Below are positions 9,095-62,425 of a stretch of 64,000 bases of DNA, in pieces. The DNA lies in the IMG/VR virus record IMGVR_UViG_3300007344_000002. One strand, given 5' to 3'. Within the stretch, counting starts at the first letter, position 1. Every line of letters begins with the position of its first letter. The notes under the pieces are model-generated. The model saw only the letters and a list, made by a program, of their open reading frames with translations, ran no database searches and had not been told where the DNA came from. A program made the position numbers and the translations under genes. This stretch comes from an uncultured virus (IMG/VR IMGVR_UViG_3300007344_000002). Its lineage: Duplodnaviria; Heunggongvirae; Uroviricota; Caudoviricetes.

Positions 9095-9979
9095 TTACCA
9101 CCACTCGTCAAAGTTTCTATGCTGTACTTTTATTTGTTTAGTATTCCAACCCATAGCATCGAAAATGGGCTGGACTTTACTCACTACTTGTTCGGCGTAG
9201 TGGGGCCAATCGGGTTCAAAACCCTCTATCTCGGAAAAAGTATTTCCGGAAACATAAGTTGCTTCCTTACGAACCCCGCTTAGTGGGTCAGTAAAGAAAC
9301 CGCTTGGTCTTATTCTTAGGAAGACATAAGAATCTTCAAAGGTAATATTTCTTTCTTGCATAGAGTACAACACTCCTACAATTCCTTCGCTAATTGTTGG
9401 TTTCTTTCCCTTAGTTGTTAAGAAAGTAGATGGGTGCTTGGCACACTTGCTACAATAGAACTCACCATCAGTCCAAGAAATTTCCCTAATGTCGTACTTC
9501 TTATTACAGGTACACTTGACTAGAAATCTCTCTTTCTTTAGTCTAGTTCTTTTTGCCACTTCTTGGTAATCAAGTTCACCATTCAGTACTTTCATGTAGA
9601 CAGACTTAGCATAATCGACTATTTCTTTTTCCGATTTACCGGAAACCCACATATTGAGTGCCACTGTTTGAACTTCCTTTGCCATTGTTGTTTCGGAAAT
9701 TCTCTTAGAAGTAAATCCTGTTAGGGTAAATTTAGGCTCATCTAACCAAACTCCATCTTCCCAAGAAATCAATCCAGCGTTTCTATTCTTTGTAATTCCT
9801 ACACCCAACGATTCAAAGTATTTTTCAAACTCTAGAATAACAGGGTGTTCTTCTAGTCCTAGTAAATTAGGAAAGATAGTTCTAACTTCTTCATTTATTT
9901 TTTCAAGAGATGAAAAGGCCGACTCTATAGAATCTACCTTGACATAGATTGAGTCTGTGTGTCCATAAACTACTTCCAT
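9095..9979 (-). CDS. polB: Family B DNA polymerase, C-terminal half (motif C and thumb)
   Basis: MEVVYGHTDSIYV, KNRNAG. GGAGGTGA RBS just upstream of the ATG at 9979. Confidence 0.85.
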   Translation of the reverse strand: MEVVYGHTDSIYVKVDSIESAFSSLEKINEEVRTIFPNLLGLEEHPVILEFEKYFESLGVGITKNRNAGLISWEDGVWLDEPKFTLTGFTSKRISETTMAKEVQTVALNMWVSGKSEKEIVDYAKSVYMKVLNGELDYQEVAKRTRLKKERFLVKCTCNKKYDIREISWTDGEFYCSKCAKHPSTFLTTKGKKPTISEGIVGVLYSMQERNITFEDSYVFLRIRPSGFFTDPLSGVRKEATYVSGNTFSEIEGFEPDWPHYAEQVVSKVQPIFDAMGWNTKQIKVQHRNFDEWW

Positions 9980-9980
9980 A

Positions 9981-10575
9981 TCATTCACCTCCAAAAGCAT
10001 CTTCCCAACTAAAATCTGCATTGTTTTCTTTGGAAGTTTTCATGGCCCATTTAACATCACAATAGCACTTATCAAAAAACCAAATGAGAGTCACTAGCCA
10101 AATGAACATTAATGCAAATACTAGAAGAGTTAGCATCAAAGTACCACCACCAATAAGGTGACGATAGTAGCAATGTTGACAATATTAACCATCATCAAAA
10201 TCTTATTGCTTCTCTTGACATTGGCCAATAGTTCGCTGAGTGTTCCGTTTGTTGTTTTTTGTACTTCTATCAATTCATCTAAATTAAACATTTTTCATTC
10301 CTCTTTTATTTTTATCTACTACAGTTGCCCTATAGTATTTAACATAACATGAAAAGCAATAGTTCTTGGAAGGGTGAATCACCCTAACAAGCCTATGACA
10401 CCTAACACATCTACTCATATTATCACCTTTGATATTTCTAGGGCGAAAGTTTTTACTATTTTAATCATTCTTCTTCACCTGTTATTTCCTTGATGATTCG
10501 TTCTGCTTCACATAACTTGCAGTGATGCTTGCTTTCAAATTCGGGCCTGTGTATCATTGGTTTTATGCAATTCAT
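9981..10575 (-). CDS. Five tiny coupled ORFs between the PolB halves (10575-10465, 10468-10415, 10418-10284, 10291-10136, 10136-9981)
   Basis: Manual translation gives 36, 17, 44, 51 and 51 aa. Two are Cys/His-rich and two have a TM helix. Start and stop codons overlap. Confidence 0.5.
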
Positions 10576-12296
10576 CCTTCCATCTCCCTTGCTGTAAATG
10601 CGGCCTTACGAATAGCCTCTCTTGCACTAGCAGTAATACTAGCGGCTAGGTCTACATTCGCCCAACCGAATCCCTTGAAGGCAAGGATACCATAGAAGGA
10701 AGCCATCAAACGCTTTACAGCCATTTGGTTGTTGTTCCACTTAACGACAGCCTCCTTATCTCCAGCCTTCCTAGACTCCTTCATGTACTTCTTGTACTCG
10801 CCTCTCAACTCTTTCAAGTCGATAAGAGAGCGAGGCAATAATCCCAATTTGTCAGTCTTGAAATAGCGCATATCTTTCTCGTAGTCTTCTGCTACAGGTT
10901 GTAGATTCTGTGGAGTATTCAAGTCAGCACTGAATAGTGTTGGTTCTTCTGTAAGAGTTTCAAACGAGATATTCCTAGCAATAATCATACTAGGATAAAG
11001 ACCAGCAAAATCAAAGGCGGCTACATTGTAGTGCAATCCGTTAGTACCTTCGTCAGTAGGATTGTAAATCATAGCACCCGAATAAGATAGGCTCGCTCCA
11101 CACTTCTTACACTCTCTTAGTGTCTTCTCGTTTGGGTTCTTATGGCTACACTTATCGCAGACCTTGAACTTGGGCTTCTCTCCAGTTGGGGCTTTCCACC
11201 AAGCATTTCGCATAAAGTAGATTGAACCCATGTTAGAAGCAAAGAAGCAAGCATCGAAAGGAGCAATTAGTAATCGCTGTAAAGAAAGAATGGCTTCACT
11301 ACAGAAGTTAGTTTCATCAATCTTTACTAGTAGTTCTACATCTATCAAAGCATACTTCAAGTACGCCTCAGTATCTTCTAACCAACCTCTACGATAGAAC
11401 TCGTTAGCGTCTTCAAATTTGGTTTCCTTAGATTTACCTTCACCAAATAGAGCAGTAGAAACATACTCTAGAGATAGACTAGGTAGTGTGCCTTTCTGTG
11501 CATCATTCCATTGTCTTTCAAAGGCCATGTCCAAGTTTAGCGTAATTCTACCTCGGATAGGTTGAGCAGTAGCATGATAGCCATTCTCTTCTTTCGTAAA
11601 TCTTACCTTACCATCTTTGACCTTTATTCCATCAACAACTCCCAAAGGAGAAATAATACTAGGGTCAATATCGTAGAAGGCGCATCTAGAAAATAACTTA
11701 GGAAGGTCAGCCCAATTACCAAACCACGCAATTAACATGTCGGGGTCTTTGTCTACCATAGTCGCTAAGAAATGTTCTATCATATCTTTTTCATTCCTAA
11801 AAAAGTACTGATGTGCTGAATCACATATCATATTATCTTCGGGAAACCACGCCCATTGGATATAATCTCTATCGTAATTATCATACATTACAATAGTAGT
11901 AATCTCATCATGGTGTTCTCCGCCTTGTTGCCATTCCATATCCCAATACCACTTACGCATATCGTACTCTTTGATTTCTTCTAATCGGTCTACACAATAT
12001 CTGTAGGTGTAAGGTACATCAGCCTCGTAAGTTCTAGAAAAAGTATTCTTCAAATTCCTCAAGTCTTCCGGCATTTCTGCATAGACTTTCTTCAATCGAG
12101 TACCTTCAAGATTAACCCAATCGCCTCTCTCGTATTCTATTTCCCTAGTAATGTACTTACTAGGCTGGTAAGTAGGTGGTTCCTTACTAGTCTCTTCCAC
12201 AAAAAAGTATGGACGAAACGGAATAGTAGAACTGTGCTTAGTACCATTTTCTCTCCACGATAAATAAATATTTGAATTGTTATGTGAGATTATCAT
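10572..12296 (-). CDS. polB: Family B DNA polymerase, N-terminal half (exonuclease, motifs A and B)
   Basis: ExoI WDME, ExoIII YALID, motif A DFAGLYPS, motif B KRLMASFYG. Stops just before motif C. Confidence 0.9.
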   Translation of the reverse strand: MIISHNNSNIYLSWRENGTKHSSTIPFRPYFFVEETSKEPPTYQPSKYITREIEYERGDWVNLEGTRLKKVYAEMPEDLRNLKNTFSRTYEADVPYTYRYCVDRLEEIKEYDMRKWYWDMEWQQGGEHHDEITTIVMYDNYDRDYIQWAWFPEDNMICDSAHQYFFRNEKDMIEHFLATMVDKDPDMLIAWFGNWADLPKLFSRCAFYDIDPSIISPLGVVDGIKVKDGKVRFTKEENGYHATAQPIRGRITLNLDMAFERQWNDAQKGTLPSLSLEYVSTALFGEGKSKETKFEDANEFYRRGWLEDTEAYLKYALIDVELLVKIDETNFCSEAILSLQRLLIAPFDACFFASNMGSIYFMRNAWWKAPTGEKPKFKVCDKCSHKNPNEKTLRECKKCGASLSYSGAMIYNPTDEGTNGLHYNVAAFDFAGLYPSMIIARNISFETLTEEPTLFSADLNTPQNLQPVAEDYEKDMRYFKTDKLGLLPRSLIDLKELRGEYKKYMKESRKAGDKEAVVKWNNNQMAVKRLMASFYGILAFKGFGWANVDLAASITASAREAIRKAAFTAREMEG

Positions 12297-19594: not shown

Positions 19595-21100
19595 TTAAAA
19601 GCCCCCTATTGCATCGACTTCTTGTATTGTAGTAGCGTCTATTGCATACTTATCACTTCGTATTGCGTGTATCCTAGGCAATCTTAGAGAATATTTGTCG
19701 TCCCTTTTCATTATCATTTCTGCTTTCACATGCAGGACTACTCTAGGTAGGAAAGAATATTTTTCATTCTTAAATGAAGAAACTAGTTTTCTCAGCATAT
19801 TAGAAAGAAGTTTATGATTTATCGCTGAAAGCCCAGAAACAAATCCAAGAGAAACATATCCACTTTCCTTTCTACATGCTATTTCAAAACTCGAAAAGTC
19901 ATTCTTAGAATTTATTTTCGCTCCTATGACTACCAAGTTTAAATCTATTCTAGGTGGGGAATGTATCACCACTGCTACGCTCTTTTCATTAGGAAGATAC
20001 TTAGCATCTAAGTCCCTAATGATGATGCCATCAAACCCTTCACTAATTGCTTGGTTGTAGAATGCCTTAGAGTCTTCGTTTTCATCCGACCTAGTGGGAG
20101 GGGAGGGTAGGTCTTCCATTGCCTTGAGCCTATCCACAAAGGGCAAATTCAGCATACATCTCCCATCCTTTGATAGGCAGTCTAAAATTACACACCTTAG
20201 ATTGTCCTGTGTTTGAGTATGGTTGTTGTGAAGCACCTTCAAGACTTCATAGTAGTCCATTGGTTTTTCGTCCGAGTCTACGCAATAGAGTTCTGCGTCC
20301 AAAATAAAGTCGGATGATGAATCGCATATGTAGTTTTTCATTTTCAATGGTAAGGTGAGTATTTTGCCTTTTCTGTTGAAGAAGATAGTGTTATCTTTTT
20401 TCTTGTGAATCTGTATTCTTATTCCACCATATCTATATTCACAAATAGAATTAGTAGGTTGTTTATACACGCTCCATTTAGTATTAGACTTTGCTAACAT
20501 AGGTGGAATAAATAATCCATGAGTAGAAACATTCCTAAGTTTTCTTTTATTAGAATAAGCATGGTACATAGTATCTAGTTCGTGCATTTTAGAATCCTTT
20601 TCAACAGAAGCCCGTTCTAAGTTGAAATATTTGCTTAGGCAATTAATTACAATTCTATTTTTGTCCATCTTCAATCTAGGTTCTCTTAACCAAAAAGAAA
20701 TGAACCATTTTCTCTCAAGTGAAGAAAGACTTTCTAGTACTTCGGAGAATAATTCAAAGGAACCTTTCTGTCTGCAATCTAATTCTAGAAGTCGCATGAC
20801 CATGTTTAGGCTATAGTCGGCTGTCTTCTGTTTATCTCTTTCTAGATTGAATACACCCTTTCCTAAGTCATCGCCGTATATCTCTAACTCTTCTAGAAAT
20901 ATACCAAAGTGTTCACAAATCCACTTCTTTGTTTTATGCTTACCAATATGGGAACTATCCAAGTCTAGAGTTAGAATCTTTAGTAATTGTAAAGGTTGAA
21001 TATGCTTATTTCCAAATGCTTGCAGAATTAGACGAGTCTGTTGTGCTGATGTTTTCTTCTGCATAGTTTCGCAAAGTCTTGCTAAGTGGCTCATCGTCAT
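19595..21100 (-). CDS. ATP-dependent DNA ligase homolog, predicted catalytically inactive
   Basis: Ligase architecture (DBD, PMLAK, ILDAEL, SLRLPRI..IRSDK), but motif I reads EYRYGGIR instead of KxDGxR. Confidence 0.8.
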   Translation of the reverse strand: MTMSHLARLCETMQKKTSAQQTRLILQAFGNKHIQPLQLLKILTLDLDSSHIGKHKTKKWICEHFGIFLEELEIYGDDLGKGVFNLERDKQKTADYSLNMVMRLLELDCRQKGSFELFSEVLESLSSLERKWFISFWLREPRLKMDKNRIVINCLSKYFNLERASVEKDSKMHELDTMYHAYSNKRKLRNVSTHGLFIPPMLAKSNTKWSVYKQPTNSICEYRYGGIRIQIHKKKDNTIFFNRKGKILTLPLKMKNYICDSSSDFILDAELYCVDSDEKPMDYYEVLKVLHNNHTQTQDNLRCVILDCLSKDGRCMLNLPFVDRLKAMEDLPSPPTRSDENEDSKAFYNQAISEGFDGIIIRDLDAKYLPNEKSVAVVIHSPPRIDLNLVVIGAKINSKNDFSSFEIACRKESGYVSLGFVSGLSAINHKLLSNMLRKLVSSFKNEKYSFLPRVVLHVKAEMIMKRDDKYSLRLPRIHAIRSDKYAIDATTIQEVDAIGGF

Positions 21101-21597: not shown

Positions 21598-21800
21598 TAG
21601 TCTTCCTCCAATATTTCTCCTAGCATATGATATAGAAGTAAGGCTTCCTCTTTGTTCATTCGTATCCCTTTCTTAGTAGGCTTATCATTTTTATACCAAC
21701 GAAAATCTATTACATCAATCTTCCAATAGTTTCCTTGGTAGACTCTTATCGAGTCTTCGCTGTTTCTAGGTATCTCTCCTACGAATGCTAGTTCACTCAA
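21597..21800 (-). CDS. PC4/YdbC-like ssDNA-binding protein
   Basis: IDFRWY...KPTKKGIRM signature. Confidence 0.75.
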   Translation of the reverse strand: MSELAFVGEIPRNSEDSIRVYQGNYWKIDVIDFRWYKNDKPTKKGIRMNKEEALLLYHMLGEILEED

Positions 21801-22192
21801 TTTGCATTCCCTCCTTGAAGGTAGTAAGGGCCTTTCTACTAGTGAAGTATTGAGGGGATTCTAAATTAGATAGGCAGTTGGCAATCCAACAAGCCCCACC
21901 CATACTTGAAATTTGAACAATCTCGTATTGCTCTCCATTGACCTCAACCATTTCAGTAGTGTTTATCTCCGGAACTAAACCGTACATTCTTGTGACTTCT
22001 GCGGATACCTCTACTAAGTTATCAACCACATACTTGATGATGTGCGCTCTTTGTATTGGTATCTTTGGTGCGACCTTAATCTTCATTGTCCCTGTCATTT
22101 TACAGACAAGGCACTTGTTCCCCTCACATATAGGACAGGCTATTTCTGCCGCATAAGGGGCAGGTAAGGTCACGGTCACGGCTCTCTTCATA
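21793..22192 (-). CDS. Zn-finger protein (DnaJ-like CxxCxG repeats)
   Basis: CPICEGNKCLVCKMTG; directly after the chaperonin gene. Confidence 0.45.
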
Positions 22193-22195
22193 GTA

Positions 22196-23734
22196 TCACT
22201 CAAGAAGTACTGCTACATCGGTTGTTAAAAACATCATCGCAATAGAGAAGGCCGCAGAAATGCTACTCTTTGTGACAAGAGTTGGGTCAATAATTCCATC
22301 GACCAATAAATCACTAACAGCAACTTTCTTGGCATTGAATCCTTGCCAACCTTGCTTACCTTCAATCCAACGATTTATTACAATGTCATAATTGGCTAGA
22401 GGAAACTCACTATTACCCATGAGGGTATCTATTGGAGATAGGAGTGTTGCCATTGACATTTCATGGTCAATATTTTTTTCTTGAGGCCAATGTTGTTGGA
22501 ACCTTAGGATAGTGAGTCCACCGCCCACAATATAACCGCCGTCTAGTGCGGCCTTGGTTGCGTTAAGCGCATCGTCAAGCCTCTCCTTAGTATCTCTCAT
22601 TTCAACAGAAGAACCAGCACCTACACGGATTACTGCGATACCCCCACTAAGTCTAGAGATTCTTTTAGAGATGCTTTCTTTCACAAAGTCATTCGTACCC
22701 AATTCGTGAAGTTTTCTCAAGGCTTCTATTCTTTCAACAACTGCCTCTCCTCCGTCCCCACCAATGATAGTAGTCTTGACTTTATCAATCACAACTTTAG
22801 TGCAACTACCTAGAGTATTCTCATTGACTATTCTTAGGTCGTCGTCTGCTTCTTCTGCATAGGCTTTACCACCCACTACTGCAATCAAATCCTTTAGTTC
22901 GTCTAGTTGGGCGTCACCATAGTTTGGAGTTTCAATTACTCCTACATCGAGCCTACCTTGTGCTACATTCAATAGTACATTTTGTAGTGCTAGGTTCTGC
23001 AATCCTCTACAGACTAATAGTAGAGGCCTTCCTTTCTGTGAAGCATATTCACAAGCAGGTAAAATGTCTTGGAACTTTCTAATGATTTTGTTAGTGGATA
23101 AGATGAGTGGATTCTCTAGAACACAATCTCCATTATCTCGATTAGCAAACAAGTGACTAATGTAGCCGCTCTCTAATTCTAATCCTTCTTTAATTTCAAA
23201 AGAAGTATTCAAGTCTAAACTTTCTTCGACAGAAACTACTCCGTTTCTGCCAACTGCTTTGAAAACCTCGGCAATAAGTTCGCCCAGTTTTTCATCGTTG
23301 TTGGCCGCAATAGTAGCAATCTTTTGAATATCATCATCAGCGACGGGGATACTTCTACTATCCAAATAACCAAGAAGACCATCTCTAACCTCTGTTAGGT
23401 AGTTTCTCCATTCGTGAATACTTCTAGCATCTCTAAATCTATGTAGAGACTTACACAATGCTCTAGCCAAAATACAGGCGGTAGTAGTACCATCACCCGC
23501 CTTTGATTGGGCTTTCGATGCTAGGTCTTGAACTAGTTGTACCCCCAATTGAACATAGGGGTCCTCGGAACGAACATATTTAGTGATAGTCACTCCGTCA
23601 TTTATGACAACCGGAGGGTTGCCTTGTAGAATAACTGTCTTCGCTTGTGGCCCAAATGTTGGGGCTACAGTATCAGCGACTAAACTAATACCCTCCAGTA
23701 GTTTCTCCCCTACTTCATTTCCGTTTAGAATCAC
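22196..23734 (-). CDS. groEL: Group I chaperonin GroEL
   Basis: TFGP, NDGVTI, AGDGTTT, IAANND, KERLDDALNAT, GGG, GIIDP. Confidence 0.95.
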   Translation of the reverse strand: MILNGNEVGEKLLEGISLVADTVAPTFGPQAKTVILQGNPPVVINDGVTITKYVRSEDPYVQLGVQLVQDLASKAQSKAGDGTTTACILARALCKSLHRFRDARSIHEWRNYLTEVRDGLLGYLDSRSIPVADDDIQKIATIAANNDEKLGELIAEVFKAVGRNGVVSVEESLDLNTSFEIKEGLELESGYISHLFANRDNGDCVLENPLILSTNKIIRKFQDILPACEYASQKGRPLLLVCRGLQNLALQNVLLNVAQGRLDVGVIETPNYGDAQLDELKDLIAVVGGKAYAEEADDDLRIVNENTLGSCTKVVIDKVKTTIIGGDGGEAVVERIEALRKLHELGTNDFVKESISKRISRLSGGIAVIRVGAGSSVEMRDTKERLDDALNATKAALDGGYIVGGGLTILRFQQHWPQEKNIDHEMSMATLLSPIDTLMGNSEFPLANYDIVINRWIEGKQGWQGFNAKKVAVSDLLVDGIIDPTLVTKSSISAAFSIAMMFLTTDVAVLLE

Positions 23735-23949
23735 TCAATCACCGCCATAATATCTTCCATCCTAACGATAGTAAATTCATTGTAAGTAAAATGCTTATTT
23801 TCTGCATTGTAAATCGCTTTCTTTCCAATTAGGCTACCGTCTTTTTGGCAGTCATGTACCAATGCAATGTTGTCATTGATAGAAACAATGCCACTTTCGC
23901 TAAGAACTTCTTCTGTTTTCAGTATAACCCATTCTCCAATTGCTCTCAT
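23731..23949 (-). CDS. groES: GroES-like co-chaperonin
   Basis: AIGEWVIL...SGIV...IVRMEDIMAVI; overlaps the groEL start. Confidence 0.75.
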   Translation of the reverse strand: MRAIGEWVILKTEEVLSESGIVSINDNIALVHDCQKDGSLIGKKAIYNAENKHFTYNEFTIVRMEDIMAVIE

Positions 23950-23986: not shown

Positions 23987-24220
23987 TTAAGCAGTCATTC
24001 CATTGTCGGCTTCCATTTCCATTTGAAATTCCCAAGTGTGAAATGAAGCATGGCCAGCAATAAACCCACCTGCTTCTCTAATAGTTCCTATGAAAGAAGC
24101 ACCACAAACACTACAGTAAGTAGTGACTATTCTCTCATCAATGTAATGTCCGTTTTCTGTTTTTATTTCTACAATCTTTCCAATATCTTCATGTGTGTAT
24201 TTCATTTCAATTGCCTCCAA
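23987..24220 (-). CDS. C2H2-like zinc-binding protein
   Basis: CSVCG...H...H. Confidence 0.45.
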   Translation of the reverse strand: MEAIEMKYTHEDIGKIVEIKTENGHYIDERIVTTYCSVCGASFIGTIREAGGFIAGHASFHTWEFQMEMEADNGMTA

Positions 24221-24797
24221 AGGGCTTTCTGTTTTTTATCATGTTATGGTAGTGGTTTTCAGGCCACCATTCCGGCCTTCTATTCTTTTTCCAAGTGGCG
24301 AAGTCCCACTTACCTTGTAGGTAGTAGTGGCGATATGACTTGATAACAAAGTCCCAACTGTGTTTTTCTTTAGGTAAGCGGTAAATATCAGCCATAGCAA
24401 TAGATACAGGAGTCAAGTCTTCTTCGTCATAAGAGAAAGTAAAACTATCTCCAATTCTTTTTTCTGCTCCGTGAATCTTACCATACCTAAATGTATATTC
24501 TTTACAAAGCGCAACAGCATGATTGTATAGCCACATGTAATTTGCTTTGTTCTGTCTAGCCCAAATAGTACTAGGGTGATTTAACATAGCAGGTTTCATC
24601 AACTTAGAATTGAGGTGTGCATGAAACTTCTTCAACTCTGCAAGAGTTGGCTTAACACCATAGATACTTACATAGTGGAAGTAAAGAGTATTGGTGTGCA
24701 ACATTTGACAACTTTCTGTTGGCATTTTTACTACATGCTTGTCCAGCATTTGCTGTGCTGATAGTACTGGGTCTTTAGTTAGTGCAAATATATTCAT
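24207..24797 (-). CDS. Pyrimidine-dimer DNA glycosylase (DenV-like family)
   Basis: MNIF..DP..SA...DKHVVKM..E..QML, HPST.W, EYT.RYGK.H. Confidence 0.75.
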   Translation of the reverse strand: MNIFALTKDPVLSAQQMLDKHVVKMPTESCQMLHTNTLYFHYVSIYGVKPTLAELKKFHAHLNSKLMKPAMLNHPSTIWARQNKANYMWLYNHAVALCKEYTFRYGKIHGAEKRIGDSFTFSYDEEDLTPVSIAMADIYRLPKEKHSWDFVIKSYRHYYLQGKWDFATWKKNRRPEWWPENHYHNMIKNRKPFGGN

Positions 24798-25015: not shown

Positions 25016-25209
25016 TCAATCACCGCCAATAGGTCTTTTGTTATGTGTTCAGCCCATGCTTTAGTTGGTCCGACATAACCGTTGGTTATCCCTGCTATCC
25101 TCTCGATTTCTTCACGCAACCGCTTGACTTCTTGTATCAGTTCCCATGCTAAGTGATTGAATGGTTGCGCCTCTCGAAGTCTTCGTTCGTATTTGTCTGT
25201 GTCAATCAT
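25012..25209 (-). CDS. Small coiled-coil protein (MIDTDKYE paralog)
   Basis: See the adjacent paralog. Confidence 0.55.
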   Translation of the reverse strand: MIDTDKYERRLREAQPFNHLAWELIQEVKRLREEIERIAGITNGYVGPTKAWAEHITKDLLAVIE

Positions 25210-25796
25210 TCTTCTTCGCCTCTATCCCAATTCTTCTCTAGTAACATCTCATTAATACTAGTCTTAATCTCTTTAGGTGCGTAGGCTCGCTTAATCTGCT
25301 TTCGCTCCCACTCAAAGTCACGATAGATGTGTAGTTGTTCGGGGTGCTTATTATTCCAAATACCATAGTGGCCTATGCCGCCTAGAACAATAGCGTTGTG
25401 CATCAAAGGCTCCCACTTACCAACAGTATTCCAATCAGTACCACTAAAGTAAGCAGAGCCGAAAGGATGGGTGTGAATCCAACACTTAATTGGTAGAGTC
25501 ATTCCAACAGGGTCAACTTTGAAGGAAACAAAGCCAGCCGTGCCAAAGGAAATGTGTAGATTATCCTTACCATCCACAACGACTTGTACTTCTAATCCAT
25601 TAAGGATTTCAGTAGATGCCTTCCAAATGGCATTGAGAAACTCTGTCTCGGACCAAACTCCATTGAAACTAGGGCGAATCAAGTTCTCTATTAGACCTTG
25701 ACAGTGTGCTTCGTGGTCTGCTTCTGCTTCGCCCCAATCATGTCTATCGTCGTCTTCTCCATGTACTCTAATGTACCAATCTCCAGTTTTGCTCAT
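25206..25796 (-). CDS. JAB/JAMM (MPN+) metallo-isopeptidase
   Basis: Upstream Glu (GLEVQ) plus WIHTHP-x5-FSGTD, matching E...HxH-x7-S-xx-D. Confidence 0.85.
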   Translation of the reverse strand: MSKTGDWYIRVHGEDDDRHDWGEAEADHEAHCQGLIENLIRPSFNGVWSETEFLNAIWKASTEILNGLEVQVVVDGKDNLHISFGTAGFVSFKVDPVGMTLPIKCWIHTHPFGSAYFSGTDWNTVGKWEPLMHNAIVLGGIGHYGIWNNKHPEQLHIYRDFEWERKQIKRAYAPKEIKTSINEMLLEKNWDRGEEE

Positions 25797-26038
25797 TCTT
25801 CTTCCTCTCCGTTTTTTTTATTACTTGTTCTAGCCATTTCTATAGTTATCAGCCTTTGTTCTTCAAAATCTAAAGTTGGGCCACTAATACAGAATATTCT
25901 AAAACCAACAACATAACCATTACAAGTGTCACAACAACGGCCATCTACCAAAGGTTGTGCGTTATGTCCTTCGCTCCAATAGACTTTACCGTTGTGACTA
26001 TGCGCTTGTATTTCGCCTTTACAAATACAGCACTTCAT
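25793..26038 (-). CDS. Zn-finger protein
   Basis: CCIC...HNAQP...CCDTC. Confidence 0.55.
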   Translation of the reverse strand: MKCCICKGEIQAHSHNGKVYWSEGHNAQPLVDGRCCDTCNGYVVGFRIFCISGPTLDFEEQRLITIEMARTSNKKNGEEEE

Positions 26039-26628
26039 ACATTCACCACCATAAACGGATTAACGCTCTCTCCAGCAAACCATCGTTGCATCCACTGTGC
26101 CCCAATACTAGCGATTACAGAGTGCATGAAATGGATACCTTCCTTGCTACCATCCCAAGAATCTCCTTGACATGAGAAGGAACCATCCGGACCTGCTAGT
26201 AGCGTATCATAGGAAGAAGGCTCTGCTTGATAAGAAACAAGTGCGGCATTCCTTCCTTGAGAGCGAAGGTCTAGCCACTTTACTTCTTCTACATTGGCCT
26301 TGTATAACATTCGTCGTGTGTTTAAATTATCAACACAACAAACTACTAAGTCATATCCTTTCAGTTGGTCGTCAACTAGAATTGGATACTTGTTTCCAAC
26401 TACTACCTGCTCATAGTTCTTCTTCATAAAGAACGCTTTATTTTGCCCAACACTATCTGTAGTGAAACGCTGGTATGTCACATTCTTTTCTTCAATAGTA
26501 TCGGGGTCACTTACGGTAATCTCGTAGAGTTCCCGCTCATAACTTCCGTTCCCTGTTAGGTTGTTCAAGGTGTCAATGAGATAACTCCCAATTCCACCGG
26601 CTCCGATTATCAATATTTTTCTAGGCAT
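26035..26628 (-). CDS. E1/ThiF-family ubiquitin-like activating enzyme
   Basis: GAGGIGS, DPDTIEEKN..YQ, NKA, CVDN..RR, candidate catalytic Cys in FSCQ. Confidence 0.85.
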   Translation of the reverse strand: MPRKILIIGAGGIGSYLIDTLNNLTGNGSYERELYEITVSDPDTIEEKNVTYQRFTTDSVGQNKAFFMKKNYEQVVVGNKYPILVDDQLKGYDLVVCCVDNLNTRRMLYKANVEEVKWLDLRSQGRNAALVSYQAEPSSYDTLLAGPDGSFSCQGDSWDGSKEGIHFMHSVIASIGAQWMQRWFAGESVNPFMVVNV

Positions 26629-27476
26629 TCTATTCCTCTTCCTTTTATTTGTTTTTTATTGGTATTAATTATTTTCAAAAGCCTCTTGACTTCTCGACCA
26701 ATGGCATCATACCCAATACCACTAACCGATTCTATTTTCTTGTTCGTTATGTTCATGTTCTCCATAGTAGCCACAATAGAACAATATGCGGCTGGAGTAC
26801 TTGGCTTGATATTCTCGTTAGATTTCGAGAGAATATTATCAAAGTGAATTGATAGCAGGGAAACCTTTCCTAAGTAAGAAGGGTAGTGTTCTAGTTCGTC
26901 TGCTAATAACATAGCATATTTTTCAGCGAATGGTCTACATTCCTTTATTAGAAAAACTCCGGTATTGTTCTCTTCCTTTGCTATCTTCCTAGCCAACCTA
27001 AACACAGACTTCTTGTTGCATTCGTATTCAGCACAAACTTCTTTCAGTGTGAAGGGAAGTGACTCATTTTTCAAACAGTAGTAGACAAGTGCCGCCGCTC
27101 TATTTTCAAGAGGGGCAGTAGAAAATGTGTGCTTTCTGTAGAGCATCAAATACAATTCCTCTACAGTAGTAAAGATTGTAGAAGTTCTTGGTATCTTTAG
27201 TGATGCCATCAGTAGTCTACACATTGAAACTCCTTTATACACTGCCTTATTTTCAATTTGAGCGAAGGACAGGGATTTAGGTTTTATCGTCTGTAATCCC
27301 ATTTCATGTAAATTGGAAGACCAACGCTCTCTAATAATTGAGCCTTGGCTGTCCTGTAGATAAGTCCCTTGCTCAAAGGGTTCAGTCACTAGAACTAAAC
27401 CACACTCTTCACAAATTAGTTCTCCTAAGACTTCATCGAATTTATTCTTCAATGATTGGCATTCTAAGCATTTCAT
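26610..27476 (-). CDS. tfb: Transcription initiation factor TFB/TFIIB
   Basis: Zn ribbon CLEC...GELICEECGLV and cyclin repeats (AAALVY...TLKEV; PAAY). Confidence 0.85.
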   Translation of the reverse strand: MKCLECQSLKNKFDEVLGELICEECGLVLVTEPFEQGTYLQDSQGSIIRERWSSNLHEMGLQTIKPKSLSFAQIENKAVYKGVSMCRLLMASLKIPRTSTIFTTVEELYLMLYRKHTFSTAPLENRAAALVYYCLKNESLPFTLKEVCAEYECNKKSVFRLARKIAKEENNTGVFLIKECRPFAEKYAMLLADELEHYPSYLGKVSLLSIHFDNILSKSNENIKPSTPAAYCSIVATMENMNITNKKIESVSGIGYDAIGREVKRLLKIINTNKKQIKGRGIECLEKY

Positions 27477-28818
27477 TTTTTTCACCTTTATTACACATTA
27501 ATTCAAATTTAGAACTGAATGGATTATTTACATCAATCTTAGTACGAGTGAATATCTTAGAACTCATAACCAATCTAGGTTTAGATGCCGTCACTTCACT
27601 TCCTAAAGTGCTGACTCTACTCATAGTCATTCTGTCATTCAATAGGGAGAGAATCCTTGAGGCAAATTGGTCGCCAAGGGAGGGGTTCTTTCCTCCAGTG
27701 TTTATGCAAATACTATGACCCCAGTACATTATATCTCCGGTATCTTCACTCTTAACTCTAAGCATTTGAGTACTAACTGCTTGAACTCCTATGCTTTCTC
27801 TTTTGAGATTAGACTTAGAGCCACAGAGTAGCCAATCGGAGGTTTGTCCGGAAACAATGATTCGTATTGCTTCTTCACTATCCTTTCTTTTTACCCTGTC
27901 CGGATATTGAACCAATAAATCATCAAGAAGCGTCATGGCTCTTTCTTGCACTAACTTCTCCGAGCGATTCTGTTCTAAGAAGGCCATCATCAATTTAGTT
28001 TCTGCTTCCGTAGGTTCCTTATTCATTAAACGAGTAAAGAGGGTTTTAGGACTAAGGAACTTCCAGTTCCCTACTCGCTTACCATGACGATAAAAACCAA
28101 TCATAGTCATTAGGTCTTTTTGGGATATTTTACCCCAAACATTTGAACTGATTTCTATTGCATAGTCGTCATCGGAAATTTGCATTACTTGTAATCTAAC
28201 ATTGATTGTTCGACCCTCTTTCATATATTGAAAAGGTAGTCTAGTAGTAAGAACATATCTAATGTCTTCCGGAACTAGAATAGAACTAGCCACAATATCC
28301 CTCAACTCTTTCCTAGATAGCGGAACCTCTTTTCTTTTTGTTTTAGCATCAATATCCAAAAGAATTCTAGCGAGAATAGGGGCGATGTGTTTTCTAGGGG
28401 TGGCCATGCCGTTAATTGAATAGGAACTGCCCTTCTTAGAAATAACGACTTCTACTTCCCTAGAAGCCTCACTATCCAAGCCAGCATCGCATTTGGAAGT
28501 AAAAGTAATTACGAAAAACAAATTATCGCTTTCCGGATATTCCGTGTGTGTAGTGCCGTTCTCATCGACAATATTCATTCTATAGTATTGATGTCTATTA
28601 TATGCCCCCTTTAGGATTTCATTAAATGCCTCGGAAGTTTTTTCTAAAATAGGGTCTGCTGAATACAATACCCTAGAATCTATTCGGTGTCTGTTGGGGC
28701 AAATATGTTCTCTGAACACAACTTCTCTTCCATCCTTTTCAAAATGCACACTGCATCTTAGGGTTTTCGTATTCTCTTGTGTATATATTTCAAAATTTAT
28801 TCTTCTCATCGTAATCAC
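27442..28818 (-). CDS. Uncharacterised 458-aa protein in the Ubl cluster
   Basis: Long ORF with a C-terminal SICI...GDQFASRILSLLND segment. Confidence 0.6.
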   Translation of the reverse strand: MITMRRINFEIYTQENTKTLRCSVHFEKDGREVVFREHICPNRHRIDSRVLYSADPILEKTSEAFNEILKGAYNRHQYYRMNIVDENGTTHTEYPESDNLFFVITFTSKCDAGLDSEASREVEVVISKKGSSYSINGMATPRKHIAPILARILLDIDAKTKRKEVPLSRKELRDIVASSILVPEDIRYVLTTRLPFQYMKEGRTINVRLQVMQISDDDYAIEISSNVWGKISQKDLMTMIGFYRHGKRVGNWKFLSPKTLFTRLMNKEPTEAETKLMMAFLEQNRSEKLVQERAMTLLDDLLVQYPDRVKRKDSEEAIRIIVSGQTSDWLLCGSKSNLKRESIGVQAVSTQMLRVKSEDTGDIMYWGHSICINTGGKNPSLGDQFASRILSLLNDRMTMSRVSTLGSEVTASKPRLVMSSKIFTRTKIDVNNPFSSKFELMCNKGEKNEMLRMPIIEE

Positions 28819-28973
28819 ATCATATATGTTTTTGATTTGTATTGTTTGAGGCAGTTTTCATGCGCCTCTAATTTCATGTCTTGTGGTGTCATTAAAGAGC
28901 CACCACATACTCTACATTTAGTCGCTATTGGGCGACCTCGGTTGTTCTTGGTATAGTCGGGGTTTTTACTCAT
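28815..28973 (-). CDS. Small Zn-binding protein (52 aa)
   Basis: Manual translation includes KCRVCGGSL...AHENC. Confidence 0.5.
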   Translation of the reverse strand: MSKNPDYTKNNRGRPIATKCRVCGGSLMTPQDMKLEAHENCLKQYKSKTYMM

Positions 28974-29256
28974 CTTCGTTCACCTCCTTATATCCAATAA
29001 TGAATCGCTTTTCGACTACCTTTCTTTCTAGGTAGGCGTGGAACCCTATGTCTACTGCCATAGGGCTTTGCCACAGGGCTTGTTTCAGTCTAGAAACAAC
29101 CATGTAGCACTTACCTCTACTTTCTCTTCCGCTTGTCTCTTCGTAGCGGATTTTTTCGACTACTCCTATGTAATCGGGGTGACTCTCTTCCAAGAAATCG
29201 TCAAGAATAAGAACAGCGAGTTTCTTACACTCATCGAAATCTCGGAAGAGAGCCAT
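28966..29256 (-). CDS. Hypothetical protein
   Basis: 96-aa coupled ORF. Confidence 0.5.
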   Translation of the reverse strand: MALFRDFDECKKLAVLILDDFLEESHPDYIGVVEKIRYEETSGRESRGKCYMVVSRLKQALWQSPMAVDIGFHAYLERKVVEKRFIIGYKEVNEDE

Positions 29257-29301
29257 AGTTTCACTTTTGGGAAAGTTGTAGTTATGGGAGAGAGGACAAC
29301 C

Positions 29302-29508
29302 TCAAAGAGAGCCTCCGACGATAGCGGGGGTTAGGTCAACAGATTGAACAGTGTCCCAATTGATACTGTTAATTCCTTCTCGGCTAACCATTTCTCCATT
29401 GACAAAGACCCAATGCGTAGGGTGATTGTCAATCTGTTCAATGACTTCCGAAAAAGCCATCTCAACTTGTGTGTGTCCTGTTTCATTTAAAATTCGTAGT
29501 GTAATCAT
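29302..29508 (-). CDS. Ubiquitin-like beta-grasp protein (ThiS/MoaD/SAMP-like) with a GG-SL C-terminus
   Basis: 68 aa, VFVNGE and VDLTPAIVGG followed by SL. GGTGA RBS. Confidence 0.8.
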   Translation of the reverse strand: MITLRILNETGHTQVEMAFSEVIEQIDNHPTHWVFVNGEMVSREGINSINWDTVQSVDLTPAIVGGSL

Positions 29509-29520
29509 AATATCACCTTC

Positions 29521-30591
29521 TTATTTCTCCCATGTCCTACCACTATTTAAGCGGTCACTTTCCCTTGCTTGTTTGCCTTGCTCTAGAGCAATAGCCCGTC
29601 CTAGTTGTAGTTTGGAGAATCTTTCTATGTCGCTGTTCTCCATGTTCAACTCTTGCGCCTTTTCGATTTGCTCCTGTGAAGGAGATTCAATAAAACGCTT
29701 GATAGTAATAATGTCATTTGCAGTCAATGACATAAAAGAAGAGTTTCTATGTGCCATCACATAATTTTGATGCAACTTCCTAATGAAATCTTTTTCGGAT
29801 GGAGTTAGGAATTCCCAATTTTGTAAATATCCTTTATTAGAAAAACCATACCATTCTAACATTTCGCTAGTAGTCCACTTAGTTCTTTTATCTTCTAGTG
29901 ACTTCCTATAGTCAGCATATTCTTCTTCTGTAAAAGAGCGGCCATTGATAGTCGCTCCTCCAACAAATCTGTAAAAGTAATCTAGGTCGGCTAATAATGA
30001 CTTGTTAGGATAACCCCTTCCGTTTATCTGCGCTCTACGATTATTGGGATGGTTCCATCTCCATACAATAGAAGCCATACCTTCACTATTGGCCCTCTTT
30101 CGTAATTTAGAACCTTTCCAATTATTAGTCACATTCAGCCTTAAGTCCAATTCTCGTACTGCTGTGAACTTCTCAACAAAGTCCTCACCGTGTTTAGACC
30201 ACCATGCTTCATTCTTCATTCCCTCAATACGAACAGAAATCCATTCTTCAATCATAGCGTCTGTAATAAGTTCTCTATCAATTCCCGTACTCTTTTCAAT
30301 CTCTTTCAAGATAAGATATGAGTTGATGTGGTCGGAACCAACAGCCATAGTAAGTCCAGTGATAGTATTGCGAATAGCGAAATGATAAACAATGCTGTGA
30401 CCACAAAGACAGTAGCCATAATCTCTAACCCATTCGGGTATTTCAGTATCATCTTCACCATTCCACCACCAACACTCACCAGTGGCCTCCCACTCTAGTT
30501 TAGCATCATCGTAGTTATCAGCCTCGGATAAGAAAGTAAGTTCTCTCTTTAGTGTTTGGTCCCATCGACCATTACCTAGTTCTCTCTTGAA
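29521..30591 (-). CDS. Hypothetical protein with a CxCGH...GSDH metal-binding motif
   Basis: YCLCGHSI...VGSDHI. Start approximate. Confidence 0.5.
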   Translation of the reverse strand, partial: FKRELGNGRWDQTLKRELTFLSEADNYDDAKLEWEATGECWWWNGEDDTEIPEWVRDYGYCLCGHSIVYHFAIRNTITGLTMAVGSDHINSYLILKEIEKSTGIDRELITDAMIEEWISVRIEGMKNEAWWSKHGEDFVEKFTAVRELDLRLNVTNNWKGSKLRKRANSEGMASIVWRWNHPNNRRAQINGRGYPNKSLLADLDYFYRFVGGATINGRSFTEEEYADYRKSLEDKRTKWTTSEMLEWYGFSNKGYLQNWEFLTPSEKDFIRKLHQNYVMAHRNSSFMSLTANDIITIKRFIESPSQEQIEKAQELNMENSDIERFSKLQLGRAIALEQGKQARESDRLNSGRTWEK

Positions 30592-30593
30592 CT

Positions 30594-31795
30594 TCAAGCC
30601 CATTCCTCCGTATCCATCTTTTCATTCTGTCGTTGTTCCAATAAGAATCCAGTAAGAATCTCGTCCATTTTGTCTTGTAGGTTATCAATAATACCTGCAA
30701 TAACTCGACGGTTAAGACTAATCCAAATCCTATGGTGGGTATTCAATACCACCTTTGGTTCATCGTTCTCATTCATGCTAATTACCATAGGCGGCATGTG
30801 TTCATTATCAATCAATTTAAATTCTACTTGTGTTTTATTCATTTTTATTCCTCTTTATTTTTGCTTTTTCTTTTGTATGTTTATTTCCATCGGCAGAGAA
30901 GAAGTAGGTTTTCTTGTAGTAGGTTTTCCATCCATAGCGGTTAATCCTACTTTCTTTGACGCACTGCGCCACTCTTCTGTAAGTATCTTTTCCACCCTTC
31001 CTAGCGAATTGACGGACTTCTCCTCGGTATCCTATTCTCTCTCTACCTAGTCTCCGATAGTGGTGTATAATAATGTCATAGAATTCTGTCTTATCATATT
31101 CCTTGTTTTCGTCTAAAGAATCGAAGGTCAATTCAATACTTTCCTTCATCAAAGGCCAATTGATTCTCCTTACTGCTCCCCTTCCCATAGTCATTCTTCC
31201 TGTGTTGAGAAGGGAGGATAGAGTATAGTCAAACCGACCATAGCACCATTTTCATCATATTCGGGTTCCGAATAGTTATCCAATAAGAATTCGTAGGCTT
31301 CTTCAGTAATTCCGTAGTCAGTGCCAGCAGGACCGCCAATGTTGATTGTGTATAGTTCAAAGCCCAAATGCTTGCATTTAATCTTCAAAGCAATCATTCC
31401 TGCTCTAACTGAATTCTTCGCCGGTAGTGGGTCTAATCCACAATGTCCGTTAGCAATCAAAGCATCTACTAGCATTTGTCTACTTACAGATTGGCGGTTC
31501 ACTAGTTCGTTTAACAGTATTCGTTGTTCAATTTGTGGTATGTTCATATTCATTCCCCGATAGTATCACATTCAATTTCCATAGTGATTGTTCTTCCATC
31601 ACTGCGGCCTTCGATAACTTCTGCCCATTCTCCACAATCGCACCAAACAGAATAACTTGCTAGGATAATGCCTTTCATTTTCAATTGAGTTTCATGATAA
31701 TCTACTTTTGCTAAAAGTGACAAGTGTTCGCCACAATCGCAAAAAGCACCATTTCCAATTACTCTTTTTGCTTCGTTCGTTATTTTATTTTTCAT
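30594..31795 (-). CDS. Four small early-type ORFs (30842-30594, 31194-30835, 31553-31191, 31795-31550)
   Basis: Translationally coupled. The last has two CDCG motifs, and two look HTH-like. Confidence 0.5.
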
Positions 31796-31867
31796 ATTTA
31801 TTCCTCATTATCGGGCATTGCACCCTCTCGGTAGTCATTGATAGCACTACTACACTATTTGAATGAG

Positions 31868-31942
31868 TGGAACAAACAGGATTTGAACCTGTGGTCACTC
31901 GGTTATGAGCCGAGAGCATTAACCAAACTATGCTATTGTTCC
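31868..31942 (-). tRNA. tRNA with CAT anticodon (Ile2 or elongator Met)
   Basis: GGAACAA/TTGTTCC acceptor, CTCGG-CTCATAA-CCGAG anticodon arm, ACAGG-TTCAAAT-CCTGT T arm. Confidence 0.9.
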
Positions 31943-31947
31943 GTAGG

Positions 31948-32030
31948 TGTCGAAGGCAGGATTTGAACCTGCGAACCATTTAGGACAGGAGTTTAAGCCC
32001 TGCGTGTTTGACCTACTCCACCACTTCGAC
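31948..32030 (-). tRNA. tRNA-Leu(TAA)
   Basis: GTCGAAG/CTTCGAC acceptor, CAGGG-CTTAAAC-TCCTG anticodon arm, long variable arm, TTCAAAT T loop. Confidence 0.9.
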
Positions 32031-32032
32031 AT

Positions 32033-32107
32033 TGGCGAGCGCAACAGGAATCGAACCCGTATCACCGGCTTAGAAGGCCGGTATGCTATCCATTACACCA
32101 TGCGCTC
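32033..32107 (-). tRNA. tRNA-Arg(TCT) with encoded CCA
   Basis: GAGCGCA/TGCGCTC acceptor, CCGGC-CTTCTAA-GCCGG anticodon arm, TTCGATT T loop, GCCA end. Confidence 0.92.
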
Positions 32108-61612: not shown

Positions 61613-62417
61613 TGTGGGAAAGAATACTAAAACAATCCGATATGATAGAAAAAGAAAACAGTCCAATTTTGGACTCACTAGATGAAAAGAAGAGAAAGCG
61701 ATTGAAGAAGACTCTACAATCGGCAGAACCAACTGAATACTTTGGTCAAGATTTCACTCGAATGGGTGAACTCATTGACATGTTAAGAGAGTTAGACTTG
61801 GTTAAATCCGATGATAAGATGAAAAAGAAGTTCGACGGCATTGACGAAAGGAACATTGATATGGTGGCCCTATCTAGCAAACTTCGTAAGGAGTACGAAG
61901 TCTTGTATCGTCAACTACGAGAAGTCGTATATCCAAAGAGAAAGGGGGACTTGAGAGATGAGTGAAAATAATGAAGACATGCTGATTATTCTAAAGGAAT
62001 TAGTCGGTAGAATTAAGACTCTAGAACAAGCAGTCTACAACAAAGATAACCTGCTTATGAAGTCGGGCTTTGTTGTTGTCGATGGCCCTACTCCATCCAT
62101 GTCAAATCAATCTGTACCGGATGCTGATGCTATCCATAAGATGAGTTGGAATGACATTGAAAAGTTCGTAAATGGGAGGAACTGATATGCCGGAAAAAAT
62201 GACAAAAGAGGAAGCACAAATTAGTCGAGCAATTAGATTGGTCCGTAAAGCAAAGGAAGTTCTTCAAGAAGAAGGTAGAGAAACTCTACCATTGGAAATA
62301 GAAGACCCCGATGTTAAGACTAAGAAGCCAAAGGCAGAAAAAGACGATACTAAGATTGAGAATGATACAGGTACTCATTCCGGATATGGTCTTGCTGGAG
62401 ATATTAACGACGCTTGA
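61612..62417 (+). CDS. Three small head-arm ORFs (61612-61965, 61958-62185, about 62187-62417)
   Basis: MWERILK tag on the first; internal MSWNDIEK in the second. Confidence 0.55.
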
Positions 62418-62425
62418 GTGATTCG

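Follow-up and report, generated by a model that had tools for sequence, protein, structure and literature searches.

A ubiquitin-like protein, an E1-like enzyme and a JAMM protease encoded together by magrovirus-like viruses of marine archaea

Do viruses of archaea own a machinery for tagging proteins with a ubiquitin-like modifier? The question is raised by a stretch of 64,000 nucleotides (hereafter the window) from an uncultured tailed virus, IMG/VR record IMGVR_UViG_3300007344_000002. Between positions 25206 and 29508, its minus strand encodes a small ubiquitin-like protein (Ubl), an E1-like adenylating enzyme of the ThiF type and a JAB/JAMM metalloprotease, together with a homolog of transcription factor TFB and a protein of 458 amino acids (aa). 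The initial annotation, made from the sequence alone, named these open reading frames (ORFs), all of which are present on the minus strand, and proposed that the virus carries its own tagging and untagging machinery. The conserved virus-encoded Ubl/E1/JAMM module is real. With moderate confidence, we regard it as a ubiquitin-like protein-conjugation system common to magrovirus-like viruses of marine archaea.

The Ubl, E1 and JAMM proteins

The Ubl gene (29302..29508) encodes a precursor of 68 aa, in which a mature part of 66 residues ending in TPAIVGG is followed by a Ser-Leu tail. The ORF is conserved, with 54–99% identity to 47 other distinct sequences. Homologs gathered from 80 related viral loci number 62, and every one terminates in VGG, within the sequence (L)TPAIVGG, plus zero to two residues and once nine. 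The tail after the Gly-Gly comprises two residues in 51 homologs, a single residue in 2 and nine in 1, and is absent from 8; the mature protein is 66 residues long in 60 of the 62. There are 22 different tails, and the preceding LTPAIVGG is nearly invariant. At the sequence level, an invariant Gly-Gly followed by a freely varying short tail is the mark of a Ubl precursor trimmed by a protease.

AlphaFold2 produced a confident small model of the Ubl from a 48-sequence alignment, with a predicted local distance difference test (pLDDT) score of 82.6. The model is sequentially composed of two strands, a helix, two strands, a short helix and a strand, and ends in a floppy C-terminal tail. This order is that of a β-grasp. 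The Foldseek list for the model consists almost entirely of ubiquitin, NEDD8 and their relatives, with no row better than E 0.028. MoaD and ThiS are the top fold neighbors, and the bacterial Ubls 8tyx and 8tyz and BubA are also found among the structural neighbors. The ESM Atlas returned nothing but viral hypothetical clusters, apart from a single lead to the ThiS family at 0.84. The 68-aa sequence matches nothing in Pfam at E ≤ 0.1, including the ThiS, MoaD, ubiquitin and Prok_Ub families, and nothing in the PDB below E 0.2 by phmmer or by profile. The model and the VGG end bear out the initial description of the protein as a β-grasp Ubl.

The E1-like enzyme (26035..26628) is a minimal protein of 197 aa with a GxGGxG motif, a DPD motif, K64, the D100-N101 pair and C153. 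It matches Pfam ThiF (PF00899) at E 1.1e-14 and 54.7 bits, against a cut-off of 28.1. Residues G9, G11, G12, G14, D41, D43, K64, D100, N101 and R105 are invariant in 46 E1 sequences. Their roles in the adenylation site are presumed by comparison with MoeB and ThiF. C153 is likewise invariant in the 46 sequences and lies 53 residues past D100, a spacing that alone places it as the putative catalytic cysteine of the crossover loop. The initial assignment as an E1/ThiF enzyme thus agrees with both the Pfam match and the invariant adenylation motifs.

In the MoeB/ThiF/UbaA subfamily, two CxxC pairs form a structural zinc site. The 197-aa sequence contains no CxxC, no rhodanese domain and no ubiquitin-fold domain (UFD), and is about 50 residues shorter than the MoeB chains in the PDB (249 aa). 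A large protein collection yielded 721 homologs. Among these, the 120 matches listed are all assigned to PF00899 and measure 184–202 aa, and in no case does the longest contig exceed 98 kb.

A single-sequence search of the PDB gave one match for the E1, the E1 domain of Cap2 (7tsx; E 2.1e-3), aligned to residue 184. The family profile matched a ThiF-type protein, UBA3, MccB, Cap2, UBA5, MoeB, Uba4 and ThiF with similar scores, the matches spanning the N-terminal 60–100 residues only. The viral E1 profile was also aligned by hhalign with six bacterial Cap2-like proteins that contain a Prok-E2_B domain, five of which also contain ThiF domains. The alignment with the Cap2-like E1 domains reached 97.2% probability and E 4.2e-11 over 145 columns. 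In addition, 24 PADLOC models of the E1-E2 proteins of cyclic oligonucleotide-based antiphage signaling systems (CBASS) match the viral E1, with a best value of 2.1e-7.

The third protein (25206..25796) is a JAMM/MPN+ metalloprotease of 196 aa. Residues E69, H108, H110, S118 and D121 are invariant in 46 JAMM sequences and form the pattern E ... HxH-x7-S-xx-D. The window protein itself falls under the Pfam cut-off for Prok-JAB (PF14464; 16.8 bits versus 25). At E ≤ 0.01, 40 of the 46 distinct family members match Prok-JAB (best 1.7e-4), the only family to be matched. The family profile matches AMSH-LP in the PDB at 3.3e-3. The invariant catalytic set and the Prok-JAB matches support the original naming of this ORF as JAB/JAMM. 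All eight viruses in which the Ubl already ends in Gly-Gly retain the JAMM gene, which argues that the JAMM protein is not only a trimming enzyme.

Linkage and distribution of the module

Related loci were collected from IMG/VR with the E1 as seed (113 relatives) and with the 458-aa protein as seed (191 relatives), and the best 80 loci of each scan were examined. Among E1-seeded loci with enough flanking sequence, the Ubl gene is present in 48/48, the JAMM gene in 79/79 and the 458-aa gene in 61/61. Loci seeded with the 458-aa protein contain the E1 in 79/79, the JAMM protein in 76/76, the Ubl in 51/51 and the TFB in 79/79. Neither set includes a locus that has one module gene without the others. 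All 60 loci that hold the six genes show the order Ubl, 52-aa protein, 458-aa protein, TFB, E1 and JAMM on one strand, over 4.3–9.6 kb. Unlinked genes in relatives would have spoken against the initial proposal; the Ubl, E1 and JAMM genes are linked in every relative with enough flank.

Two further members of this order lie close to the 458-aa gene. The 52-aa protein (28815..28973, minus strand) is zinc-ribbon-like, with a C-x2-C ... H-x2-C pattern. Among 80 loci, 64 contain its gene, which in every case immediately precedes the 458-aa gene, and the Cys/His pattern is conserved across 53 distinct sequences. The TFB/TFIIB homolog (26610..27485, minus strand) is a 291-aa protein that comprises a zinc ribbon and two cyclin repeats and is encoded, as first described, between the Ubl and JAMM genes. 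A profile of 41 TFB sequences matches human TFIIB at 1.9e-14 over positions 21–266 and the Pyrococcus TFB core at 6.4e-14 over positions 88–273. The window protein matches Pfam Zn_Ribbon_TF at 1.1e-6, and the zinc-ribbon cysteines C6, C9, C25 and C28 are invariant. By these matches the 291-aa protein is a true TFB; its translation probably begins at the ATG of residue 4.

Most genes of the cluster at 25190–31800 on the minus strand overlap by 4 bases or sit a few bases apart. Most of their starts are preceded by a purine-rich Shine-Dalgarno-like motif (GGAG, GAGG or GGTG) located inside the 3' end of the preceding gene, and several small proteins therefore end in runs of glutamate. This layout suggests that the cluster genes are translationally coupled. 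The motifs, together with the conservation of the 68-aa ORF, indicate that the cluster is more than a chance arrangement.

In a pattern-based scan covering 185,579 species genomes, the viral E1 had only three matching loci (L082–L084), on contigs of 12–43 kb in metagenome-assembled genomes of Maricaulis and Altibacter. These are probably magrovirus contigs mis-binned with bacteria. GenBank phage records contain no close relative, only distant ThiF genes of crAss-like and Bacillus phages. One of these lies in Bacteroides phage crAss001 (81394–83792), where gp76 carries a ThiF domain (8e-16) at residues 162–357 of 383. The adjoining gp77, annotated as a metalloprotease, matches Prok-JAB (4.9e-4). 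Judged by these domain matches, an E1-JAB pair is also present in the replication region of a crAss-like phage.

A candidate E2 and the possible functions of the module

The 458-aa protein (27442..28818, minus strand) was modeled by AlphaFold2 from 46 sequences with a pLDDT of 80.1. The N-terminal two thirds show no assignable fold. The C-terminal domain, at about residues 285–418, appears UBC/RWD-like and consists of a long helix (288–304), a β-meander that includes a variable insertion (309–370), a loop and, from residue 381 on, helices. C371, the one invariant cysteine of the family, follows the strand 361–370 and stands 10 residues before the long helix 381–393. It is embedded in the motif W-x-G-[PS]-I-C-I-[DN], which is followed by G-D-Q and by a helix ending in L-L-N-D. 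We take the motif to resemble the core of the E2 active-site signature, G-x-[IV]-C-[LI], minus the preceding HPN. The 458-aa protein is thus a candidate E2, a new and weakly supported lead that is about evenly balanced; alternatively, and chiefly, it could be an RWD-like protein that partners TFB without catalytic activity. A candidate E2 encoded between the Ubl and the E1 makes conjugation more likely than sulfur carriage.

An HMMER profile of the domain, searched against 1.84 billion representative sequences, matched 154 proteins at E ≤ 0.001. Among the best 150 of the 154, the full-length proteins align, as the query does, through their C-terminal part, the remainder are mostly short pieces, and one protein of 1617 aa is matched in ten short stretches. 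BFVD yielded only three unnamed homologs, and the ESM Atlas gave no usable match. Co-folding of the domain (residues 275–425) with the mature Ubl (residues 1–66) gave scores of 0.34, 0.09 and 0.07, the mark being 0.32; run without controls, these scores weigh neither for nor against binding.

The part identities, the intact catalytic residues, the Gly-Gly with its variable tail, the strict co-occurrence of the genes and the lack of virus-encoded sulfur partners are shown computationally. The chemical steps, the role of an E2 and the targets are what we infer. In protein conjugation by this module, JAMM would trim the 68-aa precursor to the 66-aa Ubl ending in Gly-Gly. The 197-aa E1 would adenylate Gly66 and probably load the Ubl on Cys153 as a thioester. 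The Ubl could then pass to target lysines directly, in the manner of sampylation, or via Cys371, with the UBC-like domain of the 458-aa protein in the role of an E2. Of the two routes, the one through Cys371 is slightly more likely. JAMM would also remove the tag.

The transcription machinery is an attractive guess as the target, because a TFB gene lies inside the module and because the Haloferax host system, according to the available part of the report, tags and degrades the transcription factor TBP2 (PMC4895103). A bolder form of the proposal is a self-contained viral E1-E2-Ubl-deconjugase cascade, with an orphan UBC-fold E2 in the 400–460-aa protein, that works with the viral TFB to seize host transcription. 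Host TFB, TBP or RNA polymerase might, for example, be tagged for removal by analogy with Haloferax TBP2. We regard this form as unlikely. The initial proposal of tagging and untagging machinery stands as far as its three components and their linkage are concerned; its suggestions of conjugate formation, of TFB or host proteins as targets and of countering a host Ubl-based defense are backed by no result.

Several results weigh against the proposed conjugation. A search for RNA runs that contain the stretch listed none. C371 is not preceded by HPN, and the 458-aa protein has no sequence match in Pfam, PHROG, PADLOC or the PDB. When its 46 family members were compared with Pfam, no E2, UEV or RWD family appeared among the 25 families listed at E ≤ 5. 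A six-frame search with UQ_con, Prok-E2_A, Prok-E2_B and RWD found none of them in four related records at E ≤ 10. Alignment of the domain with six Prok-E2_B domains by hhalign gave a probability of 0.54%, Foldseek found nothing in the PDB for the 458-aa model, and no other known family is recognizable among the best 150 of the 154 HMMER matches. The Ubl itself is poor in lysine, which is absent from 22 of the 62 mature proteins and occurs once in 39, mostly at position 3. Since 22 of the 62 have none, lysine-linked Ubl chains are unlikely, judging from the sequences.

The linkage data also contain points on this side. Magrovirus genomes are collinear overall, with GroEL in 76/80 loci and the gene of a 136-aa protein in 74/80, so synteny is weak evidence of function. 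The tightest block is formed by the 52-aa gene, the 458-aa gene and TFB, which is never interrupted, and not by Ubl, E1 and JAB. The Ubl, E1 and JAMM genes are not adjacent, and unrelated genes stand between them in relatives. In locus L010, for instance, the Ubl and the 52-aa gene are separated by a ribonucleotide reductase, TFB and E1 by a pyrimidine-dimer glycosylase, and E1 and JAMM by a 355-aa ORF.

These same observations bear on what else the genes might do. The proteins could conjugate as in sampylation, with Ubl, E1 and JAMM sufficing, and with the 458-aa protein and the 52-aa zinc protein forming a transcription module as a non-catalytic RWD-like partner of TFB. SAMP conjugation in archaea is known to proceed without an E2. 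The contiguity of the 52-aa gene, the 458-aa gene and TFB, with varying distances to the Ubl and E1 genes, fits this possibility, as does the lack of a sequence-level E2 signal. Non-catalytic RWD and UEV domains score as well as E2s, and some of the weak structural rows are Mediator subunits. On the other hand, the single invariant cysteine appears to be located at the place of the E2 cysteine, within the conserved motif and before the conserved helix. The sole local hhalign alignment to Prok-E2_B, 14 columns long and not significant, pairs C371 with the E2 cysteine. The 458-aa protein is also never seen without E1, JAMM and Ubl. Taken together, E2-independent tagging appears possible but somewhat unlikely. 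That the genes are functionally unlinked, and neighbors only through collinearity, is highly improbable. JAMM might then, for example, strip host SAMPs from viral or host proteins, with the E1 and the small protein acting otherwise. The equal conservation of many other genes, such as GroEL and the 136-aa gene, and the separation of Ubl, E1 and JAMM are in keeping with this explanation. So is the description of archaeal Borgs, in which numerous genes of the JAMM deSAMPylase type occur but a full system is lacking (PMC12660748). Against it, a GG-ended β-grasp whose tail is disposable is not known to serve any purpose unless an activating enzyme or a processing protease is at hand, and none of the examined loci holds one of the genes without the rest.

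The module might also act as a sulfur carrier only. The E1 would make a Ubl thiocarboxylate for a host enzyme of tRNA 2-thiolation, of molybdopterin or thiamine formation, or of cysteine synthesis, and JAMM would only mature the precursor. QbsE/QbsD and CysO/Mec+ are sulfur-carrier systems with such a maturation step. A thiocarboxylate feeding host enzymes is compatible with the data, and MoaD and ThiS stand at the top of the fold neighbors. Sulfur partners were searched in six frames in the four related virus records, one of them CheckV-complete, and in 14 control genomes. NcsA/TtuA-type PP-loop ATPases (ATP_bind_3), MoaE and rhodanese were found in none of the four records. ThiG did not exceed the cut-off in any, with one 14.8-bit stretch in one record. 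In the same searches, 11–14 of the 14 controls were positive. Families of thiamine, molybdopterin or thiolation genes are also missing among the 58 window ORFs scanned with Pfam, as the first reading of the sequence had noted. The idea of an auxiliary metabolic gene set for thiamine or molybdopterin was dropped, given that no partner enzymes are present. The E1 has no rhodanese domain. Moreover, s2U34 is carried by tRNAs for Lys, Glu and Gln, whereas the three viral tRNAs (Met-CAU, Leu-UAA and Arg-UCU) are not such species. Conjugation is favored because the sulfur partners are missing, JAMM is kept in the lineages with a GG-ended Ubl, and a UBC-like protein with an invariant cysteine is always present; a role in sulfur carriage only is quite unlikely. 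An MccB-like reaction, in which the E1 would adenylate the C terminus of the small protein to yield a modified peptide rather than a protein tag, is scarcely credible. MccB is among the better PDB profile matches of the E1 (7.1e-8), but the match is limited to the shared N-terminal Rossmann part (positions 3–64), and the small protein is a folded 66-aa β-grasp with a GG end, not a short peptide.

Genome setting, related systems and implications

The window belongs to a tailed archaeal virus that is magrovirus-like. The closest of the viral records compared is a contig of 66.8 kb with a CheckV completeness of 75%. A minus-strand arm at about 3–35 kb encodes a split family-B DNA polymerase, an RFC-like clamp loader, an ATP-dependent DNA ligase, an ERCC4 nuclease, a UvrD-type helicase and a GroEL-type chaperonin. 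A plus-strand arm from about 36 kb contains the terminase and portal genes. The Ubl module sits in the replication/early arm, on the strand opposite to terminase and portal. The three tRNA genes are located at 31867–32107. In the accessible sections of the founding magrovirus paper, groups B, B1 and C are reported with GroEL and group B with tRNA-Leu and tRNA-Arg (PMC5434244).

Further features of the window were noted. The family-B DNA polymerase is divided between two ORFs (10572–12296 and 9095–10021) about 550 bases apart. Each arm carries one ATP-dependent DNA ligase gene, at 19595–21100 and at 62414–64000, the latter running past the window end. The G+C content of the segment 36001–38000 is 0.47, compared with about 0.38 elsewhere, and the GC skew changes sign where the divergent gene arms meet; the segment may be an origin or control region. 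The GroEL-type chaperonin (22196–23734; PHROG groEL 1.2e-102) lies within a gene group at 21793–23949. It is preceded by a 72-aa ORF, whose homolog in locus L010 weakly matches Cpn10 (3.7e-3), and followed by the 136-aa protein, which contains two CxxC motifs reminiscent of a DnaJ zinc finger. The three may form a viral chaperone set. The available text of the founding paper supposes that magrovirus chaperonins, like those of phages, function without GroES (PMC5434244).

Closer to the module, a pyrimidine-dimer DNA glycosylase domain (Pfam Pyr_excise 1.8e-6; PHROG 624 7.5e-48) forms the N-terminal part of a 196-aa protein (24207–24797), and the place of its gene relative to the Ubl module shifts among relatives. 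An 81-aa Cys-rich protein (25793..26038, minus strand) is an accessory outside the conserved core, occurring in only 11 of 80 related loci. In the window, as in many relatives (45/80 loci), the gene for a 360-aa protein without a family match (29521–30603) lies immediately upstream of the Ubl gene; in other relatives it is found elsewhere.

Among known systems, archaeal sampylation (SAMP/UbaA/JAMM1 in Haloferax volcanii) shares with the module a small GG-ended β-grasp, one ThiF-type E1, a JAMM protease and an archaeal setting. The magrovirus module differs in that it is virus-encoded, its E1 has only 197 aa and lacks the CxxC zinc motifs, and its Ubl has no ThiS or MoaD match in Pfam. It always includes the UBC-like protein with an invariant cysteine, whereas sampylation uses no E2.

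The bacterial operons of type II CBASS (Cap2/Cap3), Bil and Bub/6E contain a comparable set of Ubl, E1, E2-like protein and JAB, and the E1 domain found in Cap2-like E2-E1 fusions is demonstrably a relative of the magrovirus E1. In contrast to those operons, which defend hosts against phages, the magrovirus set is carried by a virus. Its E1 and candidate E2 are separate genes, unlike the Cap2-like fusions, and the candidate E2 matches no Prok-E2 or UQ_con model. A PADLOC scan of 10 cluster proteins for type II CBASS found no CD-NTase or other effector, only the E1, to which the E1 portion of E1-E2 models aligned, and a single weak match to Csf1. Prokaryotic Ubl/E1/E2/JAB operons were first predicted by Iyer et al. 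in 2006, as stated in the available text (PMC1779556). Bacterial Bil, Bub and type II CBASS are presented in the accessible parts of later reports as conjugating in defense (PMC11601596; 10.1101/2023.09.26.559546). Bub uses Tyr/Ser chemistry, according to the accessible text, whereas the magrovirus module has conserved cysteines (PMC11601596).

Parts of such systems have been described in other viruses and extrachromosomal elements. In the RaFAH study, a gene of the MoeB/ThiF family is reported as one of the auxiliary genes that archaeal viruses carry most often, and a connection with ubiquitination is drawn (PMC8276007); the Helarchaeota virus Nidhogg is reported to carry three E1-like genes (10.1101/2021.07.29.454249). 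The accessible sections of both reports concern the E1 only and suppose use of a host Ubl, with no virus-encoded Ubl, JAMM partner or E2 candidate described there. Borgs, in addition to their JAMM genes, include one with a SAMP, as the accessible portion relates (PMC12660748). Phage lambda TAPI/TAPK resembles the module in that a virus-encoded β-grasp with a conserved C-terminal glycine lies beside a JAB peptidase; by the available account it differs in having no E1, in belonging to a tail module and in the fusion of its JAB to NlpC/P60, whereas the magrovirus genes are in the replication/early arm (PMC1779556). That position, outside the structural arm, disfavors a role in tail assembly, which was dropped.

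A literature search found no description of the magrovirus Ubl, E1, JAMM partner or 458-aa protein, though supplements beyond those of PMC5434244 may hold gene tables. ThiF, JAB and ubiquitin have no mention in the main text of PMC5434244, PMC10160649 and PMC11706807 or in two supplements of PMC5434244. Searches on viruses of Marine Group II and ThiF returned only the RaFAH study (PMC8276007), and those on archaeal viruses with ubiquitin-like and JAMM proteins returned nothing on magroviruses.

It is likely that magroviruses tag proteins in infected cells. Prokaryotic Ubl conjugation is known from archaeal cells, in the form of SAMPs, and from bacterial anti-phage defense by CBASS Cap2/Cap3, Bil and Bub. 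Here, the whole Ubl set is found in a virus, and across globally abundant viruses of marine group II archaea. Its novel features are the ownership by a virus, a very small stand-alone E1, a Ubl without a sequence family and a candidate E2 that lies outside the E2 models. The hosts are uncultivated, and the parts of the module are all small and amenable to co-expression. If the module conjugates, its E1 of 197 aa, perhaps with a new E2 family, would serve for studying the chemistry of a minimal pathway, and archaeal viruses would be using ubiquitin-like tagging as an offensive or regulatory tool. Should the full cascade also hold true, it would be the first complete ubiquitin-type cascade owned by a prokaryotic virus, and one used for attack rather than defense.

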